Part shown: positions 1 to 40,462 of the stretch, piece after piece
How positions within the stretch are numbered: position 1 is the stretch's first letter
How the letters are laid out: every line of letters begins with the position of its first letter
Source of the DNA: Minisyncoccota bacterium
GTDB lineage: Bacteria > Patescibacteriota > Minisyncoccia > Phycocordibacterales > EsbW-18
Length of the DNA: 42,756 bases
Direction: 5' to 3'
Assembly: GCA_033811555.1 (NCBI GenBank)
Contig: JAPXOG010000002.1
Coordinates: 1 to 42,756, forward strand
The notes under the pieces: model-generated
The model's input: the letters and a program-made list of their open reading frames with translations, nothing else
Told to the model about the DNA's origin: nothing
Database searches by the model: none
Made by a program: the position numbers and the translations under genes

Positions 1-1936
1 CCGGTGGCAAGTCGAGGTTGTGGGTTTGATAGAAGGAGGTGAAGGAGGAGACGGAGGATTCAAGGTCAAGGGTGATGACTTCGGGTTTTGTGGTGCCGTC
101 TTTCTCCGGACGGTGGTATGTGGCGGAAAAACTATCAGCCACCTGTGGCCCGCCCTCAATCCTTCTCTTGTTACGCAGAATGCTTTGAATGAGTCCGTCG
201 CGCTCTCTTTGCTCCTCCAGTTTCCGTTCAGCTTCGGCGCGAAACTTTGATACTTTCGTCCGTGACGAAACTTTCCGTTTTTTGAATGGGTCAAGTTCCG
301 CAAGTTCGGCAAGCGATACATGTGCTTCGCGTCTAGAATCTGCAACAAGAGCTTCAATTTTTTTCTTATCACCACGCAGCTTCTTCGCCGCTTCAAAATC
401 AAAGATATCGGCCGGCAAGCCCAAGTCCTTCGGCGAGAGCATGCGGAGCAACCCCTTTGACGCGAGAATTTTTGCCGCAAGCGCGCGGTCTTCCTGCGAA
501 TACTCTTTAAATGTCAAACCCCGTTTAAGGCGAGAATCTAAGTGTTCTACAAACGACACCTCTTCCCCTCCCATTTCTTTCTGTACACGCCAGTCGGCAA
601 GAATGGCTTCAATAGTACCTTGCGTCATAACAAATTTTTTCAACCCAGGCACCTTCCCTGATGCGCCCAGCATTTGTGTTGCGTCTGCCGTTTCTTTCCG
701 CATAACACCAGCGTATGCTTCTTGAATCTCTGTCATCGCCTCACAGAGTTTGGGAAGAGTTTCGTTGAGATCGTGCCATGAGAGATCAACGGAGCCGTCG
801 GGGTTCATGAGACGTGCGAGTATGATGTCGTACGATTCGTCTTTTGGTTGGTACCCGATTTCAAGATTATTCTGTTCAAATTCACGCGCCACCTCCGGTG
901 GGAGTTCTTGCCGTTCAGGGTTTTTTTCTGATTTGAGGTTTGCGGTGAAAATCATTTGGAACCCCTCAGAAATACGAATTTTTCCGTTTCCAACAACATT
1001 TACTTCATCCCCGGGTTTTGCATTAAAGATGCCTTTGATGAAAACCATTTGCTCCTTAGGAAGCGCTGAAAACTCATCAAAAATAACCACTGTCCCGTCC
1101 CGCATTGCTTTTGCCAACGGACCATAAATATCAACAGTCTCTATCTGACCCTCTTTTGTCGGGCGAATACCCGTTTTCCCCCACACAGAAGATTCTCGTG
1201 TTTGTGGAGAACAATAAACCATTTCTGGACTTTTGCCCGTAAAATGTTTTGCAGCAAGACGCGCAAGTGACGTTTTTCCTGTTCCCGTCGGACCATGCAA
1301 AAACATAGGCTTACCTATGAGCATGTTGCGACCTATAGCTTCAAGCGTTTCTTCCACGCTCTCCGTGTGCGCAATGTGCCCTTCTTCAGAGAGCCCTTCC
1401 TTAAACTTCACCAATTCATGCGCGCGGAATAAAAGTGGCTCTTCAGACGCTTGCTCTTCCAGTTTTTCGCGAAGTGTCCCTTTTTCTGCCCGTATGGTTT
1501 TGAGAAGTCGCTCAAGTCCGTCACGCACATGCGGACTACTGCGTTGCAATTCAAGCATCCGTCGCATTTCAAATTCACGGATGTCGTCATATTTGTCTGA
1601 GAGTTCATCTATTTCCTGATATGCGGGGGCGGCGTCCCCCAAAGACTTCAAAACAGCATCTTCGTTGATGCCGAGATTATTCCGTAGAGCCTCTTCTTCG
1701 GCAATTTTTTGGTCAGAACGGAACCGCTCTTTTGCCTTTGAGAGCCCGCCTGAGCGCCCTATAAATCCTTTGGTTTCATGTGCAATACGTTCAACCTCTC
1801 GCTTTGCAATGTCTGCGCCAAATGTTCCAGTTTCTGCGCGCCCAATACGGCGGAGTGCTTTTTTTTCTTCTTGCAGGCGAAAAACATTTTCTTCTTCACC
1901 GCTTGGACCAACATTAATCTCTGGGGACTGTTTCAT
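1..1936 (-). CDS. AAA+ ATPase (AAA_5 / MoxR-McrB-like P-loop), N-terminal 645 codons. The C-terminus runs off the left edge.
   Basis: This ORF is absent from the supplied track because it is edge-truncated. My own minus-strand translation from the ATG at 1936 is stop-free down to position 2 (MKQSPEINVGPSGEEENVFRLQEEKK...). It contains Walker A 'FLHGPTGTGKTSLA' and Walker B 'TVVIFDEF'. The + strand ORFs at 189-1949 are Ser/Arg-rich antisense shadows. Confidence 0.75.
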   Translation of the reverse strand, partial: MKQSPEINVGPSGEEENVFRLQEEKKALRRIGRAETGTFGADIAKREVERIAHETKGFIGRSGGLSKAKERFRSDQKIAEEEALRNNLGINEDAVLKSLGDAAPAYQEIDELSDKYDDIREFEMRRMLELQRSSPHVRDGLERLLKTIRAEKGTLREKLEEQASEEPLLFRAHELVKFKEGLSEEGHIAHTESVEETLEAIGRNMLIGKPMFLHGPTGTGKTSLARLAAKHFTGKSPEMVYCSPQTRESSVWGKTGIRPTKEGQIETVDIYGPLAKAMRDGTVVIFDEFSALPKEQMVFIKGIFNAKPGDEVNVVGNGKIRISEGFQMIFTANLKSEKNPERQELPPEVAREFEQNNLEIGYQPKDESYDIILARLMNPDGSVDLSWHDLNETLPKLCEAMTEIQEAYAGVMRKETADATQMLGASGKVPGLKKFVMTQGTIEAILADWRVQKEMGGEEVSFVEHLDSRLKRGLTFKEYSQEDRALAAKILASKGLLRMLSPKDLGLPADIFDFEAAKKLRGDKKKIEALVADSRREAHVSLAELAELDPFKKRKVSSRTKVSKFRAEAERKLEEQRERDGLIQSILRNKRRIEGGPQVADSFSATYHRPEKDGTTKPEVITLDLESSVSSFTSFYQTHNLDLPP

Positions 1937-22448: not shown

Positions 22449-24200
22449 TTACTTTTCCTCTTTTGTCTTAAAAAGATCTTTCAGGACTTGCTCTGGGACT
22501 TCTTGAGGTTTTTGTTGTTTCTGACTCTGTTGTTGTAGTGATTCAGATTGTAGAGTTTTTTGTGGATGTTCTTCTTTCTTTTGCGTAGACGGTATTTCCT
22601 GTTTATTAGAATTTGCCTGGGCTTCACCAACTACTGCGTTTAATGCTGCTCGTAATTCAGAGAGATGCGCCTGTGATGGACCTTTAGATTTCTTTTTCTG
22701 TTTATGTTTTTTAAAATCAGAGTGACGTAAATTTGAGAGCGACACGGCTTTTCGCAATTCACGTTCACGCTCAGAATCCTGCCTGGGAGCATTCCAACGG
22801 TCTAACGGTTTTTTGCCTTCAAATTTTTGAGTACGCGGGTCATCACCACGTCGTTTTTCTTTTGGTACATCATTATCTTTTTTCTCAAACGCCTGCTTTC
22901 CATACTCTTTCTGATGCCATTTAAGAATTTCATTTTCAACAACTGCTCGTTGTCTTGAAAATTGACTCCGCGAACGCGCAATCACCACATCTCGATATGA
23001 AATAGACGGGGGTTCTATTGGCGGCAATCCTCCTGCAGAAAAAGGAGCAGACGCCATACCATCAATCATCAGCTTGAGATACATCTTAAACGCACCAAGA
23101 TTGACAAGATCTTCTGCGGTAAAAGCTGGGACGAATTCTTTTTCTAGATATTCAGCGTCAATTGCACCTACTCGGAAAGAAACCATCGTGCCAACGTTTC
23201 CAAATACGGCCGCGCGAACTTCATCACTCATCTGTTCAATGTATTGATGCGCGATTGTGAGATTTAATTTATACTTACGTGCCTCCGATAAAATATCAGC
23301 AAACGATTCATTTGCAAATGACTGAAACTCGTCTACATAGAGATAGAAGTTCGGTAACTTGTTAAGTTCTGTTTCACGCAAGTCAGCGCGCGACATCGCA
23401 GCAAGGTATATTTTTGTGATAAGCATTGAACCTAGAAGATTCGCACTATCTTCACCAACCTGACCTTTTGATAGGTTAATTATGAGAATTTTCTGATCGT
23501 CCATGATCTGCCGTATATTGAATGTGGACTTTGGCTGACCAATTATGTTGCGTATAACTGGGTTTGCAGTAAATTGACCGACTTTGTTTTGAATCGCAGG
23601 CGTTGCGTCTTGTGCAAAACGATCGGTATAATTTGCAAACTCACCTTCCCAAAAAGATTTAACTCCAGGGTCTGTGATATGAGAAATTACATCTTTTCGA
23701 TATTCCCTATCAACTAACATCCTATTGACACCCAAAAGAGTTGAACCTGGATACTCCAATAGAGCCAATATAGTGTTGTTAAGGATATACTCCATGCGTG
23801 CAGACCATGCGTCCACCCAAATTTTCTTAAATGCAGACATCAAGCCCGCCGACACAAGATGACGTTTATCTGTGCCAACATCTTCCATTACATTAAATGA
23901 AACCGGATTACTGAGATCAAACGGCGCAAAATATAAAACATCATCTACACGCTCTTTAGGAATATATTCCAAAAGCAAATCGGCGCTTTTTCCATGTGGA
24001 TCGATAAACGCAAAACCTTCTCCATTCTGAATATCCTGTACTGCCATGTTCTCCAGAAGTGTTGATTTACCAGTTCCAGTTTTTCCAATGGCGTAAATAT
24101 GTCGAGGCCTGTCTTTTGCTTTAATACCAAATTTCACCCTTTTATTGCGGTAGTCGGTTTCACCTATATATGTGATGCGATTAGGATCGTACAGTGCCAT
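22449..24200 (-). CDS. VirD4/TraD-like type IV secretion coupling-protein ATPase (soluble form) with a long Lys/Gln/Glu-rich C-terminal tail
   Basis: Walker A 'IGKTGTGKSTLL' and 'FAFIDPHGKSADLL'. The Walker B / TraG-D_C-like region is 'FYLYVDEFQSFANESFADILSEARKYKLNLTIAHQY'. The ATG at 24200 (MALYDPNRITY) is preferred. Confidence 0.78.
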   Translation of the reverse strand: MALYDPNRITYIGETDYRNKRVKFGIKAKDRPRHIYAIGKTGTGKSTLLENMAVQDIQNGEGFAFIDPHGKSADLLLEYIPKERVDDVLYFAPFDLSNPVSFNVMEDVGTDKRHLVSAGLMSAFKKIWVDAWSARMEYILNNTILALLEYPGSTLLGVNRMLVDREYRKDVISHITDPGVKSFWEGEFANYTDRFAQDATPAIQNKVGQFTANPVIRNIIGQPKSTFNIRQIMDDQKILIINLSKGQVGEDSANLLGSMLITKIYLAAMSRADLRETELNKLPNFYLYVDEFQSFANESFADILSEARKYKLNLTIAHQYIEQMSDEVRAAVFGNVGTMVSFRVGAIDAEYLEKEFVPAFTAEDLVNLGAFKMYLKLMIDGMASAPFSAGGLPPIEPPSISYRDVVIARSRSQFSRQRAVVENEILKWHQKEYGKQAFEKKDNDVPKEKRRGDDPRTQKFEGKKPLDRWNAPRQDSERERELRKAVSLSNLRHSDFKKHKQKKKSKGPSQAHLSELRAALNAVVGEAQANSNKQEIPSTQKKEEHPQKTLQSESLQQQSQKQQKPQEVPEQVLKDLFKTKEEK

Positions 24201-24270
24201 AAAATGAGTTTGCAAAGAAGCGATGCCTGCACAAGCAAGCATACTTACATTCAGTATAAAACAGAAACTC

Positions 24271-24316
24271 AAAAGAAAAAGCGCCGAGCGCAGGTTCTTT
24301 GAACCCCACGCTCGGC
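24271..24316 (-). terminator. Intrinsic terminator after the two-gene cassette
   Basis: GCCGAGCG...(GGUUC-AAA-GAACC)...CGCUCGGC followed by a U-rich run on the minus strand, 9 nt after the stop at 24325. Confidence 0.65.
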
Positions 24317-24324
24317 ACTAACTA

Positions 24325-24627
24325 TCACACCACGCGGAACCCAATCCACCCCGCATGTTCAAGGCGATCATCGAGAGTGATCCTCAATACCCCTCTGTTC
24401 CCGAACACACGGGCGAGAAACAGAGCTACCCTGTGGAGCTCGTTTGGACACAAGATGCCTTCCACGAGCCCCTCGAGCTGAAGAGGTGGCTTGCCGGGAA
24501 CATCCCAGCGGGCAAAACTTTGCCCCCGCTGGATCCTACACCTGAAGTACCCCCTCTCGAAATTCACTCGAAAGAGGATTAGGTCATTGACCTCAATCTT
24601 CTGGTTACCTTCCACGAAGCTAATCAT
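24325..24627 (-). CDS. Hypothetical protein, 100 aa (cassette gene 2)
   Basis: Begins MISFVEGNQKIEVNDL. GGAGGG lies 4 nt upstream of the ATG, and the ATG is 1 nt after the stop of the upstream ORF. Codon third positions are G/C-rich. No family is recognised. Confidence 0.6.
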   Translation of the reverse strand: MISFVEGNQKIEVNDLILFRVNFERGYFRCRIQRGQSFARWDVPGKPPLQLEGLVEGILCPNELHRVALFLARVFGNRGVLRITLDDRLEHAGWIGFRVV

Positions 24628-24628
24628 A

Positions 24629-25027
24629 CTACCCTCCTTTCTGCGAAACCCGTTTGATGAGACCGCGCGTGATTTCGCGTACTGTAAATCCACTACGAGG
24701 AGTCTGCCCGAGCGCCTCCTTAACTTCGCGCCATACACCTGGATCTTCCCCCTCGTGCAAATCTGGTTCAACTGTACAAAGCACGCCTTGACCATTGACG
24801 ACAAAACGCCAAATTCCGGCGTGTAAATACTTCGCTGGTCCATGCCTCCTCGTGCGCGAGCGCAGGATTCCTTCGGAAATCCCGTGGCATGGCTCAGCTA
24901 ACGCGATGAGAAAAGCGATCTCATCGTAGTCAGAGAGCCCTTTCGTGCCCGTAAGGCCTAGTCGAGCTCTCCACTGTCTGTACCTCCGTACAACGTGGAC
25001 ACTAATTACTACTCGTTCTGACTCCAT
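24629..25027 (-). CDS. Hypothetical protein, 132 aa (cassette gene 1)
   Basis: Begins MESERVVISVHVVRRYRQW. AAAGGAGG lies 4 nt upstream of the ATG at 25027. No family is recognised. Confidence 0.6.
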   Translation of the reverse strand: MESERVVISVHVVRRYRQWRARLGLTGTKGLSDYDEIAFLIALAEPCHGISEGILRSRTRRHGPAKYLHAGIWRFVVNGQGVLCTVEPDLHEGEDPGVWREVKEALGQTPRSGFTVREITRGLIKRVSQKGG

Positions 25028-25200
25028 CCTTCCTCCTTTCAAGTGTGAGCCATTGTATATTCTAAAAACACCCTACCTTCAGAAATGCCAAAAAGCAAGC
25101 CGTATCACACCAGACGTCACTTGTGTATATAACGCATTTGCGCAAGAAATTTATGCAAACCAAAACGCTCGTAAAGTACATTTAATCCCATTTAACTCAC

Positions 25201-25252: not shown

Positions 25253-25474
25253 TTAATCCTGGAACCCACGATTTCTTACGTGGATTCCGTTTAAAATGCA
25301 TAGACCCCATATAACAAGTGGGATCCACACAAAACAAAACCCCGCCTCCAACCCAGAGAAAATACCGTACATCCAGAATGAGAATGAGCCGAAAGTAAAT
25401 AAAACAAGAGGAAGAAAAAAATATCCGGCGCCTGCAACCGCATTGCCAAAAACAAACCTCACACATGCTTTCAT
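25253..25474 (-). CDS. Small two-TM membrane protein, 73 aa
   Basis: Begins MKACVRFVFGNAVAGAGYFFLPLVLF. AAGGAGG lies 4 nt upstream of the ATG, and the ORF has its own terminator. Confidence 0.5.
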   Translation of the reverse strand: MKACVRFVFGNAVAGAGYFFLPLVLFTFGSFSFWMYGIFSGLEAGFCFVWIPLVIWGLCILNGIHVRNRGFQD

Positions 25475-27838: not shown

Positions 27839-28579
27839 TCATTCAGAGTGGTGCATATGCTCTGCTGTCTCATCGAAGAGCAGAGCACGCTCCAGACAGT
27901 CACTTGCCTCCCGAGCACGATCGGCTCGGGCATACAAAATCCCTAGATGGCGGAACGCTCGCGCATGACGGCGCAAGCGGTTTGATGACCGAGCGTCACT
28001 TCCTCCAGTGAGAATCTCGGCTTCATGGGCCATCTGAGTGGCCTCATGAATCGCCTTGATTGACACGGGAGAATCTCCCATCACCCGAAGAAATATATCC
28101 GCACGTGCTATTAAGAAAAACACGTGCGTGTAGCAGACAGGTGAAGATAGATAACGGATGATGCACAATCCGTCATAAATTGCTTCTTCTGCCTGCTCCA
28201 ACCTCCTCTTCGAGCTCCAAGGATAGTTCGCAACAGCACGACAAATACGCTGCCGCGTATCACACGCCGAGACATTCATATTCCCGCGTGTGACATTATC
28301 CCAGAGCAAGTCAGAAGTTTTGGCCGCAGACATTAGCCTCTGAAAAACAGATATTCTCCAGAAAATCTTGTGAATCATCAAGTGAGATTTCTCGTGCCGG
28401 ACAAGAGCTGATCCAGCTGATGCGTAATATGCCCCTGAGAGCATATCGGTCGCATACTGCCACTCTTCGTTCGTTGGATCATATTCTCGACGGACGTATC
28501 TTTCCATTTCCCGCAAATGAGCGCGAAAAACAGAAAACTCGCTCGCCCACCGCAAGTCCATCCAATCGTTTAAAATCAA
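27839..28579 (-). CDS. Hypothetical all-helical protein, 246 aa, G+C-rich
   Basis: The start is TTG with GGAGG 5 nt upstream (alternative ATG at MDLRW). It has its own terminator, and no family is recognised. Confidence 0.55.
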   Translation of the reverse strand: MILNDWMDLRWASEFSVFRAHLREMERYVRREYDPTNEEWQYATDMLSGAYYASAGSALVRHEKSHLMIHKIFWRISVFQRLMSAAKTSDLLWDNVTRGNMNVSACDTRQRICRAVANYPWSSKRRLEQAEEAIYDGLCIIRYLSSPVCYTHVFFLIARADIFLRVMGDSPVSIKAIHEATQMAHEAEILTGGSDARSSNRLRRHARAFRHLGILYARADRAREASDCLERALLFDETAEHMHHSE

Positions 28580-31563: not shown

Positions 31564-31815
31564 TCAACTTCTAAAGAACCCGACTATACACATATTAAAT
31601 ACACAATAAAAAAGAGAACCGCCCGGGGGCGGCTCTTCATCGCTTGGTGGAGGAGGGATCCTCCCCCTATAAACTCTGATTCTCACTCCTTTCGGGAGTG
31701 AGAATGTCTCATCCTCATCCCCATCATCGTCGGGGGGAGGTATGACTGAATCCACTAGTCTGGTCATCAGCCAAGCAACCAGAGCCAACATCACAATCAT
31801 AACTAAATGAAACAT
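31564..31815 (-). CDS. Hypothetical 83-aa protein (N-terminal TM helix, Pro/Asp-rich tail); doubtful
   Basis: Begins MFHLVMIVMLALVAWLM. AAAGGAGG lies 6 nt upstream of the ATG. The ORF reads through a terminator-like hairpin (about 31607-31636) before its stop. Confidence 0.35.
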   Translation of the reverse strand: MFHLVMIVMLALVAWLMTRLVDSVIPPPDDDGDEDETFSLPKGVRIRVYRGRIPPPPSDEEPPPGGSLFYCVFNMCIVGFFRS

Positions 31816-32055: not shown

Positions 32056-33570
<1,515 letters not shown>

Positions 33571-39753: not shown

Positions 39754-40239
39754 ATGAGTAGTAGGAATGGAACTTTAGCGTTAAGTATTTTCTCGGCGAT
39801 CGTAGCCGGGAAAGCTATTCAGTGCGAGAAGTGTGGTCTTGCCCGGACTTCTCCCGAGTTCCAGGATGCGCTGTGGCGCCTAATGGCGCGTATGGGACTC
39901 GTCACCGAAAGGATTGACGAGTTCTTAATGGCCATCCTGGAGCCATGCGTGGCGGAGCGCGAGCGCCAGCTTGCGCTAATCCCGCAGGAGGAGCAGGAGC
40001 ACTACTCCATCCAGGTCCTCTGCGCTCGGATTCGCCATCGAACCGAGCGCGACAAGCTCACCATAGGTGAGCTGGAGGACATTTTCGTTGGGGATGTTCG
40101 CGGAAGTGGCATCCCCGAGGAAACGATCCGAGCCTTTGTACGACGACTCTGCAACGTCGTCGTACGACAGGACTCGGATGCTCGCCGGCTTCTTCGGCAA
40201 GCGCGCAAGAAGGCTTCGGCCTTCTCGTTCCCCTGCTGA
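39754..40239 (+). CDS. Hypothetical protein, 161 aa, strongly G+C-rich
   Basis: AAGGAGGG lies 3 nt upstream of the ATG. Codons are G/C-ending, a GC hairpin follows the stop, and no family is recognised. Confidence 0.6.
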   Translation: MSSRNGTLALSIFSAIVAGKAIQCEKCGLARTSPEFQDALWRLMARMGLVTERIDEFLMAILEPCVAERERQLALIPQEEQEHYSIQVLCARIRHRTERDKLTIGELEDIFVGDVRGSGIPEETIRAFVRRLCNVVVRQDSDARRLLRQARKKASAFSFPC

Positions 40240-40387: not shown

Positions 40388-40462
40388 GCGCGTGTAGCTC
40401 AACGGTAGAGCAGCCGTCTTATACACGGCCGGTTCTAGGTTCGAATCCTAGCACGCGCACCA
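40388..40462 (+). tRNA. tRNA-Ile(UAU), CCA encoded
   Basis: The acceptor stem GCGCGUG/CACGCGC and discriminator A are identical to those of tRNA-Ile(GAU). The anticodon stem is GCCGU/ACGGC with loop CUUAUAC, giving anticodon UAU. The T arm is CUAGGUUCGAAUCCUAG, followed by the 3' CCA. Confidence 0.85.

Follow-up and report, generated by a model that had tools for sequence, protein, structure and literature searches.

The DNA analysed here, referred to below as the window, is the whole stretch of 42,756 nucleotides (nt) from contig JAPXOG010000002.1 of a Minisyncoccota bacterium, a segment of a Patescibacteria (Paceibacteria/Parcubacteria) chromosome with a 16S gene and three tRNA genes. Its minus strand contains a compact, G+C-rich cassette of two small open reading frames (ORFs), ORF1 and ORF2, next to a gene for a VirD4-like ATPase. 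The cassette is a new, clade-restricted two-gene module that is built around a widespread, undescribed superfamily of predicted BECR-like (Barnase-EndoU-ColicinE5/D-RelE) proteins and occupies a hypervariable slot of a conserved locus. It comprises the following features:

25070..25098, minus strand: candidate cassette promoter found by sequence inspection, with -35 TTGCTT (25098-25093), a 17-nt spacer and -10 TAGGGT (25075-25070)
25032..25039, minus strand: Shine-Dalgarno-type (SD) motif AAAGGAGG, 4 nt 5' of the ORF1 ATG
24629..25027, minus strand: ORF1, ATG 25027 to TAG 24631-24629, 132 amino acids (aa)
24632..24640, minus strand: SD-type motif AAAGGAGGG, within the 3' end of ORF1 and 4 nt 5' of the ORF2 ATG
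24325..24627, minus strand: ORF2, ATG 24627 to TGA 24327-24325, 100 aa
24271..24319, minus strand: intrinsic terminator, an interrupted hairpin (24319-24280) and a T-run (24279-24271)

Positions 25098-24271 of the minus strand thus constitute an autonomous two-gene operon, with a promoter, a leader, SD-led ORF1, SD-led ORF2 and a terminator in this order. The candidate promoter, which a consensus promoter scanner did not flag, implies a leader of ~35-40 nt, and the arrangement TTGnnn-N17-TA(G/T)GGT is found ~40-60 nt 5' of the ORF1 homologues in L091, L092, L093, L095, L096, L094 and L011. The terminator hairpin begins 5 nt beyond the ORF2 stop and has a folding free energy (dG) of -29.3 kcal/mol (z = -5.05), which none of 200 shuffled sequences matched; it was missed by a simple scanner because the stem is long and interrupted. 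Related terminators, ending in ...CTCGGCGCTTTTTCTTTT, follow the ORF2 homologues in L092, L093 and L095, and each cassette across the lineages carries a promoter, SD-type sites and a terminator of its own. SD-type motifs stand in front of the ORF1 homologues in other lineages and also of the ORF2 homologues, which either overlap ORF1 by 8 or 14 nt (L091, L093) or lie 15-34 nt downstream of it (L095, L096, L092). A preceding sequence-only reading had reported the ORF coordinates, the SD motifs 4 nt before the ATGs, the single base between the ORF1 stop and the ORF2 start, the terminator, the G+C richness and the long ORFs on both strands, all of which we confirmed. Its description of a self-contained, coupled two-gene operon likewise holds, with a promoter, a TAG-T-ATG junction and a terminator in place.

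The cassette and its flanks are 99.9-100% identical across ten contigs that were assembled independently (JGI, ENA and Logan), which disposes of the chimeric metagenome assembly envisaged earlier. The closest homologue of ORF1, P0009 in L091 (64% identity), is encoded on a 1.25-kb Logan contig and is followed, at an 8-nt overlap, by an ORF2 homologue (68% identity over 78 codons). Between the window and L091, nonsynonymous divergence (pN) is 0.23 for ORF1 and 0.20 for ORF2, against a synonymous divergence (pS) of 0.755 and 0.77, respectively. By this comparison, both ORFs are shown to be real genes under strong purifying selection, with synonymous sites saturated relative to L091. The G+C content by codon position in the cassette also follows the pattern of coding sequences. 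Long ORFs are open on both strands of the cassette owing to the rarity of A-ending codons, and high G+C at third codon positions (GC3) keeps the antisense frame open in most homologues. In the public gene calls for L001, L002 and L007 (JGI) and for L095 (NCBI GCA_964631485.1), ORF2 or its L095 homologue is missed and an antisense ORF of 75-100 aa is called instead. The ORFan-like appearance of the ORF2 family in protein databases is due in part to this substitution.

The cassette resides in a locus with a conserved gene order in Paceibacteria, namely, TP-methylase, DUF4015, a gap, VirD4-like ATPase and LTD/PKD protein, for which the genome collection contains 592 matching stretches, 80 of which were examined. 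The gap between the DUF4015 and ATPase genes is the variable part: it is absent in 15 of 57 loci and reaches up to 5.5 kb in others, where the fillers include MFS transporters and pilin-like genes. In L085 (3303-3800) and L054 (5327-5788), the gene directly 5' of the ATPase gene is type IV pilin-like (N-terminal GFTLIELLVVIAIIGILS). The ORF1-ORF2 pair is present in six Paceibacteria lineages (the window, L091, L092, L093, L095 and L096) and fills the gap in the window, L093, L095 and L096. Very probably, the pairs of L091 and L092 sit in the same slot, given that the MFS gene upstream of them is 76-78% identical to an MFS gene within the L095 gap; in addition, the leader 3' of the L092 pair resembles the ATPase leader. 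The contigs of L091, L092 and L096 end ahead of any ATPase gene, so that adjacency in these three was deduced from the MFS or DUF4015 neighbour and from leader similarity. An initial interpretation, whereby the pair of L091 and L092 had moved to an MFS context, was revised once L095 revealed an MFS gene inside the DUF4015-ATPase slot.

ORF1 is found without ORF2 in L011, L094 and L013, the last of which carries two tandem paralogues. In L012, ORF1 is accompanied by a divergent 108-aa gene located between direct repeats of ~35 nt and absent from the close relative L013. The two loci (L012, 310-800; L013, 4380-4470) differ by a segment of ~390 nt with one SD-led gene, and the repeats of the L012 segment derive from terminator/ATPase-leader sequence (GATTCCACC...GGTGGATAGGGACGGCGCTT), so that the difference reads as a clean gain or loss via repeat recombination. 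This L012 gene may be related to ORF2 (pairwise E = 0.001, profile E = 0.13). Altogether, the cassette is present at no more than ~10 of the roughly 90 ATPase loci examined.

These observations bear on the sequence-only reading of the cassette as a foreign insert. The VirD4-like ATPase, which had been taken as a sign of foreign origin, is encoded in the core genome at a syntenic position and is thus no indicator of foreign DNA. The sequence-only reading had named conserved homologues at this locus with native composition as refuting evidence, and by that standard the idea of a random insertion fails: the slot is shared by nine other lineages (with placement on two short contigs deduced as above), and the homologues of several relatives (L011, L094, L012 and L013) have native composition. 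No flanking direct or inverted repeats that could represent an insertion signature were found around the cassette.

Between lineages, the cassette accumulates differences at a much higher rate than its flanks: the flanking proteins are 62-98% identical, compared to 28-67% for ORF1 and ORF2. For instance, the ATPases of L012 and L013 are 98% identical and the ORF1 homologues only 60%, whereas L093 and L095 share 87% identity in the ATPase and 81% in DUF4015 but 44% in ORF1 and 46% in ORF2. In the window, the cassette also stands out by composition, as previously surmised. At 53.8%, its G+C content exceeds both the window mean (40.4%) and the value of the 16S gene and ranks first among 840 sliding windows of 760 nt, and the G+C-rich block is restricted to the coding sequences of ORF1 and ORF2. 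GC3 is 0.50 in ORF1 and 0.65 in ORF2, compared to 0.20-0.37 in 25 native ORFs, so that the composition is indeed foreign to the host genome, as are the SD translation signals described below. In relatives with high G+C content (50-57%), the composition of the cassette is roughly native, whereas in low-G+C hosts (the window, 40%; L093, 45%) its GC3 is 0.44-0.65 compared to 0.30-0.39 in the flanks. Judging from these patterns, the most economical interpretation is that the copy in the window was probably gained when recombination at the homologous locus replaced the cassette with that of a relative of higher G+C content. Such recombination would explain both the presence of genes with GC3 of 0.50 and 0.65 in a genome with GC3 of ~0.3 and the occurrence of leaders and SD-dependent genes in a host that lacks the anti-SD sequence and has no SDs on its own genes.

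Word-index homology searches with single sequences returned only the query itself. Homologues of ORF1 were instead retrieved by tblastn over the 80 relatives' loci collected via the neighbouring ATPase, which placed them in the same gap of the three nearest genomes; a profile built from these first homologues yielded seven proteins. A subsequent HMMER profile search recovered 101 cluster representatives (at 50% identity) at E <= 1e-3, including 12 at E <= 1e-10. On this evidence, ORF1 is a member of a hitherto uncharacterised superfamily that comprises no fewer than 101 clusters (50% identity), and the earlier assignment of the cassette as ORFan does not hold for ORF1 or for ORF2, which has five clear homologues. 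The superfamily core of ~95 residues follows the pattern [IV]-T-x-H-A-x-x-R-F-x-E-R … R … A-x-Y … G-W-R-F-V … L-x-T-V-E-R, with H11, R58, R74, V76, T85 and E87 as the conserved positions, all of which are kept in ORF1, where A12 is replaced by V. In the Paceibacteria subfamily, to which ORF1 belongs, the invariant residues are H11, R15, P46, R74, T85, E87 and D89, and the core is extended by two additional C-terminal helices. Several ORF1 homologues have Arg/Lys-rich C-terminal tails, and the longer members that were read (P0072, P0079 and P0082) contain the domain a second time, in degenerate form, and no recognizable delivery domain. Superfamily relatives are also encoded elsewhere, away from VirD4-like ATPases. 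One distant member, P0017 (105 aa), is encoded alone, a few hundred bases 3' of smpB (L097, 1931-3474; L098, 1247-2790). The vicinity of smpB often harbours the tmRNA gene and sites of island integration.

None of the 101 superfamily members reaches a Pfam threshold, and the only recurrent weak match is to DUF4258 (5 of 101 members, sub-threshold, best E = 1.1e-3), a family of unknown activity listed within the RelE/ParE branch of the BECR superfamily (PMC11980606). PHROG 8252 is matched by 27 and PHROG 6182 by 21 of the 101 members. Searches of GenBank phages by tblastn with three superfamily members gave no match, and scans of metagenome contigs and viral contigs found nothing. The two PHROG families, whose function is unknown, differ from the cassette protein in that ORF1 itself matches neither, and in that the Paceibacteria subfamily has the two-helix extension and a dedicated partner gene and is found on no viral contig in the viral-contig scans.

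Sequence and profile searches of the PDB with ORF1 returned only noise, and the AlphaFold model of ORF1 from its single sequence was useless (pLDDT 42). The model obtained with the seven-sequence alignment (pLDDT 77, pTM 0.69) was compared to the PDB using Foldseek. The top nine matches are all BECR toxins, albeit with weak scores (E = 0.1-0.6, TM = 0.32-0.45), and include colicin D (1tfo, 1v74, 5znm, 1tfk), CdiA-CT from NC101 (5i4q, 5i4r) and ParE1 (8c24); PrpT (7ycs) is at rank 12. The match probability for colicin D and CdiA-CT (1tfo, 1v74, 5znm, 5i4q) is up to 0.87. In the BFVD, the model matched uncharacterized phage proteins, such as E1A2D6 of phiAS5 (E = 1.3e-4, TM = 0.53/0.66). The superfamily is accordingly described here as BECR-like by prediction. 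The sequence-only reading had discerned in ORF1 a faint reminder of small toxins with an H-x-x-x-R motif; in favour of this hunch, H11 and R15 are invariant, the model matches only BECR toxins and DUF4258 recurs among the weak family matches, but every one of these matches is weak.

ORF2 represents a narrow new family, the Paceibacteria-specific partner of ORF1. Its five clear homologues (L091, L092, L093, L095 and L096) are each encoded directly 3' of an ORF1 homologue, and ORF2 was never seen without ORF1 in the data set examined. The family is characterized by a GD-hydrophobic motif in the N-terminal half, G-I-M-C-x-x-E and the C-terminal DDERKKxGWIAFRxV (DDxxxxxGWIxFRxV). ORF2 has no match in NCBIfam, PADLOC or PHROGs, and the family matches no Pfam model at E < 5 besides a spurious one. 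A sequence search of the PDB gave no match, and the PDB profile search gave a single weak one, to an SH3-like fold in the N-terminal half (7nzd, E = 0.3). The cassette thus introduces two new protein families, a phage-shared BECR-like superfamily of at least 101 clusters that lies outside every Pfam model and a Paceibacteria-specific partner, and it pins down a fixed hypervariable accessory slot beside the core VirD4-like ATPase gene.

We tentatively favour, at somewhat less than an even chance, the interpretation of the cassette as a conflict module of the toxin-immunity kind, in which ORF1 would be a BECR-type RNase-like toxin and ORF2 its cognate neutralizer. Under this model, ORF1 would be a small stand-alone enzyme of the BECR fold, most likely an RNase-type toxin employing the invariant H11, R15, R74, T85, E87 and D89, and ORF2, translated from the same mRNA in coupled amounts, would be a specific binding partner or neutralizer of ORF1. 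The toxin-first gene order would then be that of colicin D/ImmD, CdiA-CT/CdiI and HigBA. The interpretation draws on the signal from the modelled fold, on the invariance of the His/Arg/Thr/Glu/Asp set, on the placement of ORF2 always downstream of ORF1 and on the rapid co-diversification of the two genes at a fixed locus, as a toxin-immunity or toxin-antitoxin module would produce. To our knowledge, very few recognizable defence or conflict systems are present in these ultra-small symbionts.

Several observations weigh against the assignment of ORF1 as a toxin neutralized by ORF2. ORF1 matches nothing in Pfam (E <= 1), NCBIfam, PADLOC or PHROGs, and each of the Foldseek matches is, as stated, individually weak. 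The ORF1 homologues of L011, L013 and L094, which lack ORF2, retain every invariant residue, and P0017 is likewise solitary; such lone genes weaken the toxin assignment because a toxin that is active would not be expected to persist in the absence of an antidote. An antitoxin-type domain, DNA-binding or other known, was sought in ORF2 and not found, and neither was a split of acidic and basic charge between ORF1 and ORF2. Mobile toxin-antitoxin modules are rarely tied so strictly to a position beside a single core gene, and it is doubtful whether the SD motifs of the cassette function in a host devoid of the anti-SD. Measured against type II toxin-antitoxin systems, the cassette consists of two small, adjacent, co-directional genes in one operon, with the adjacency kept in six lineages, but there is no match of ORF1 to a curated toxin family model (RelE, ParE, HigB, DUF4258 and others), ORF2 shows no DNA-binding domain (RHH, HTH, AbrB or Phd) with a toxin-binding tail, and ORF1 homologues are not invariably kept together with ORF2. 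In the case of polymorphic toxins, the partner immediately downstream and its co-diversification are as expected for an immunity gene, but ORF1 is a stand-alone protein rather than the C-terminal domain of a large secreted or delivery protein.

Comparison with known systems gives the same mixed picture. Similar to DUF4258 (PF14076), RelE and ParE, ORF1 belongs to a two-gene operon and is modelled as an alpha/beta protein of small size (~100-130 aa), which begins with a strand and the helix bearing H-x-x-x-R and in which three strands form a sheet at the C-terminal end of the core; ParE1 and PrpT are among its fold matches and DUF4258 is the weak recurrent Pfam match. Unlike bona fide members of these families, no superfamily protein exceeds the Pfam threshold, with ORF1 itself unmatched, ORF2 has no known antitoxin domain and ORF1 homologues exist without a partner. 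In addition, DUF4258 modules are listed as antitoxin-first (PMC11980606), whereas in the cassette the toxin-like gene comes first. Structurally, the ORF1 model comes closest to the toxins of the pairs colicin D (a tRNase)/ImmD and CdiA-CT(NC101)/CdiI, in which the immunity gene is also immediately downstream and the pair diversifies rapidly. However, colicin D and CdiA-CT are the C-terminal domains of large delivery proteins, whereas ORF1 is a stand-alone protein of 132 aa without a delivery domain or signal, and the likeness, with weak scores for these matches (E = 0.1-0.4, TM = 0.32-0.45), is one of modelled fold. HigBA and BrnTA resemble the cassette in having the toxin gene followed by that of the partner, closely linked or overlapping, under one promoter and one terminator, but HigA and BrnA are recognizable DNA-binding antitoxins, which ORF2 is not, and the cassette proteins have no sequence membership in PADLOC, Pfam or NCBIfam families.

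An unlikely, although by no means negligible, alternative is that the pair is a non-toxic accessory module of the neighbouring locus, which encodes the VirD4-like ATPase, the LTD/PKD surface protein and, in some relatives, pilins. One protein could then be a substrate of the machine encoded there and the other its chaperone or adaptor, or the pair could provide this machine with a small factor that processes nucleic acids. Such a role would fit the location of the cassette immediately 5' of the ATPase gene on the same strand in ten lineages (with L091, L092 and L096 placed as described above), the persistence of ORF1 in the absence of ORF2, the type IV pilin-like genes that take up this slot in other lineages and the Arg/Lys-rich tails of several ORF1 homologues. 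However, the strong terminator and the separate promoter insulate the cassette from the ATPase gene, the ATPase evidently does not need the cassette, which most of its loci lack (the slot being gapless in 15 of 57), and relatives of ORF1 are encoded at other sites that have no ATPase of this kind. Moreover, the cassette diverges far faster than the machine that it would serve.

It is improbable that the polarity is reversed, with ORF1 as the antitoxin or immunity protein and ORF2 as the effector. In most type II systems, the upstream gene encodes the antitoxin, and this canonical order would be restored; the occurrence of ORF1 without ORF2, but never of ORF2 without ORF1, is the pattern of an orphan antitoxin. 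Furthermore, the SH3-like barrel is the fold of the CcdB and MazF toxins, and the N-terminal half of ORF2 weakly resembles such a barrel (the 7nzd match). Nevertheless, the invariant polar, catalytic-looking residues and the model resembling BECR toxins belong to ORF1, which has no match to a DNA-binding domain, and the ORF2 family does not match the PemK/MazF or CcdB models even at E < 5.

The leaders of ORF1 and ORF2 present a testable paradox, namely, the conservation of canonical SD sequences on the cassette genes in a clade with a ribosome lacking the anti-SD. The 3' end of the 16S gene in the window (32056-32080, minus strand) reads ...GUCGUGGAUUUAGUCAAAU rather than ...GGAUCACCUCCUU, without the CCUCC anti-SD, and this tail is identical in three independent assemblies. 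Thirteen relatives with a 16S end inside the fetched loci also lack CCUCC and have similar AU-rich tails (L016, L028, L032, L035, L038, L040, L044, L045, L048, L054, L063, L083 and L084), in agreement with the published loss of the anti-SD in a subgroup of Parcubacteria (PMC9297842). Native genes in the window, L093, L094, L095 and L096 have no SD, and many of them are preceded by a TATACT or TATAGT box ~7-10 nt 5' of the start, from which we infer leaderless mRNAs. Of the 50 genes called in six loci, the ORF1 and ORF2 homologues are the only ones preceded by SD-type motifs. Five ORFs of the window have a strong SD, namely, ORF1, ORF2, a 73-aa ORF, hyp246 and ORF 39754-40239, and these are the Pfam-less ORFs with the highest GC3 (Mann-Whitney p = 3e-4). 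The features outside the cassette that are relevant here are:

24253-24258, minus strand: TATACT box 5' of the ATPase ATG at 24242
27839-28579, minus strand: SD-led, Pfam-less, G+C-rich ORF, GC3 0.51
39754-40239, plus strand: SD-led, Pfam-less, G+C-rich ORF, GC3 0.66, adjoining tRNA-Ile(UAU) at 40388-40462

ORF 27839-28579 has a 34%-identical homologue in L095, in the same slot ahead of the TP-methylase gene. A further small SD-led ORF starts at 31814 on the minus strand.

The SD motifs of the cassette appear to be under selection because they are kept across lineages between which synonymous sites are saturated, and none of the explanations that we tried accounts for their persistence in hosts without the anti-SD. 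Conceivably, although with a distinctly small probability, a special class of small, G+C-rich, fast-evolving genes, of which the cassette would be the best example, retains GGAGG leaders under selection in anti-SD-less Parcubacteria, the remaining genes of which have no SD, and is read either independently of the anti-SD or by other ribosomes, possibly those of anti-SD-bearing relatives after transfer or those of the host cell of the episymbiont, reached via the VirD4-like machine. Functional SD motifs would mean that the mode of translation initiation in these organisms is not understood, and nonfunctional ones, being conserved, would point to frequent exchange with lineages that use SDs. It is highly improbable that the SD-led, G+C-rich genes, including the cassette, represent cargo passed around among Parcubacteria or destined for the ribosomes of non-carriers (lineages with the anti-SD, or a host cell), such that their function in the carrier cell is secondary. 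The 16S tails without CCUCC, the confinement of SD motifs to the cassette genes among the 50 called genes and the coincidence of SD motifs with high GC3 in the window are all compatible with cargo. By contrast, no hallmarks of mobile elements (flanking repeats, integrase or oriT) were found, no viral contigs carry the subfamily, the cassette keeps to one slot throughout all lineages and has native composition in high-G+C relatives, and transfer to a host is without evidence. Finally, the possibility of an artefact, be it an assembly chimera, a structured non-coding RNA or a gene on the opposite strand, which the G+C content at the level of rRNA, the ORFs open on both strands and the antisense calls in some public annotations might evoke, is effectively refuted, given the identity of sequence and context in at least ten assemblies, the lack of anything but noise in Rfam searches of the cassette at gathering and permissive thresholds, the purifying selection acting in the sense frames, in which the protein families are conserved across six to ten lineages, and the antisense openness that follows from high GC3.

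Two genes delimit the cassette on the minus strand:

22449..24242, minus strand: VirD4/TrwB-like ATPase, core gene, downstream neighbour outside the cassette, with the TATACT box ~10 nt 5' of ATG 24242 and no SD
25253-25474, minus strand: 73-aa membrane-like hydrophobic ORF, upstream neighbour, with the SD AAAAGGAGG and its own terminator at 25240-25213

The ATPase has an alternative start at 24200 and matches the TrwB/VirD4 coupling-protein models weakly (E = 7.6e-6). The 73-aa ORF is positioned between the DUF4015 gene and the cassette, and with its terminator it forms the upstream limit of the cassette transcription unit. A small membrane ORF that resembles it is found at the matching place in L011, although the similarity is not significant. 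At the far end of the window, the listed ORF 189-725 (plus strand) has a higher G+C content at the second codon position (0.62) than at the first (0.39), and AAGGAGG occurs twice at 33-48, just upstream; the codon-position pattern suggests that the listed frame or strand is perhaps not that of a real gene.

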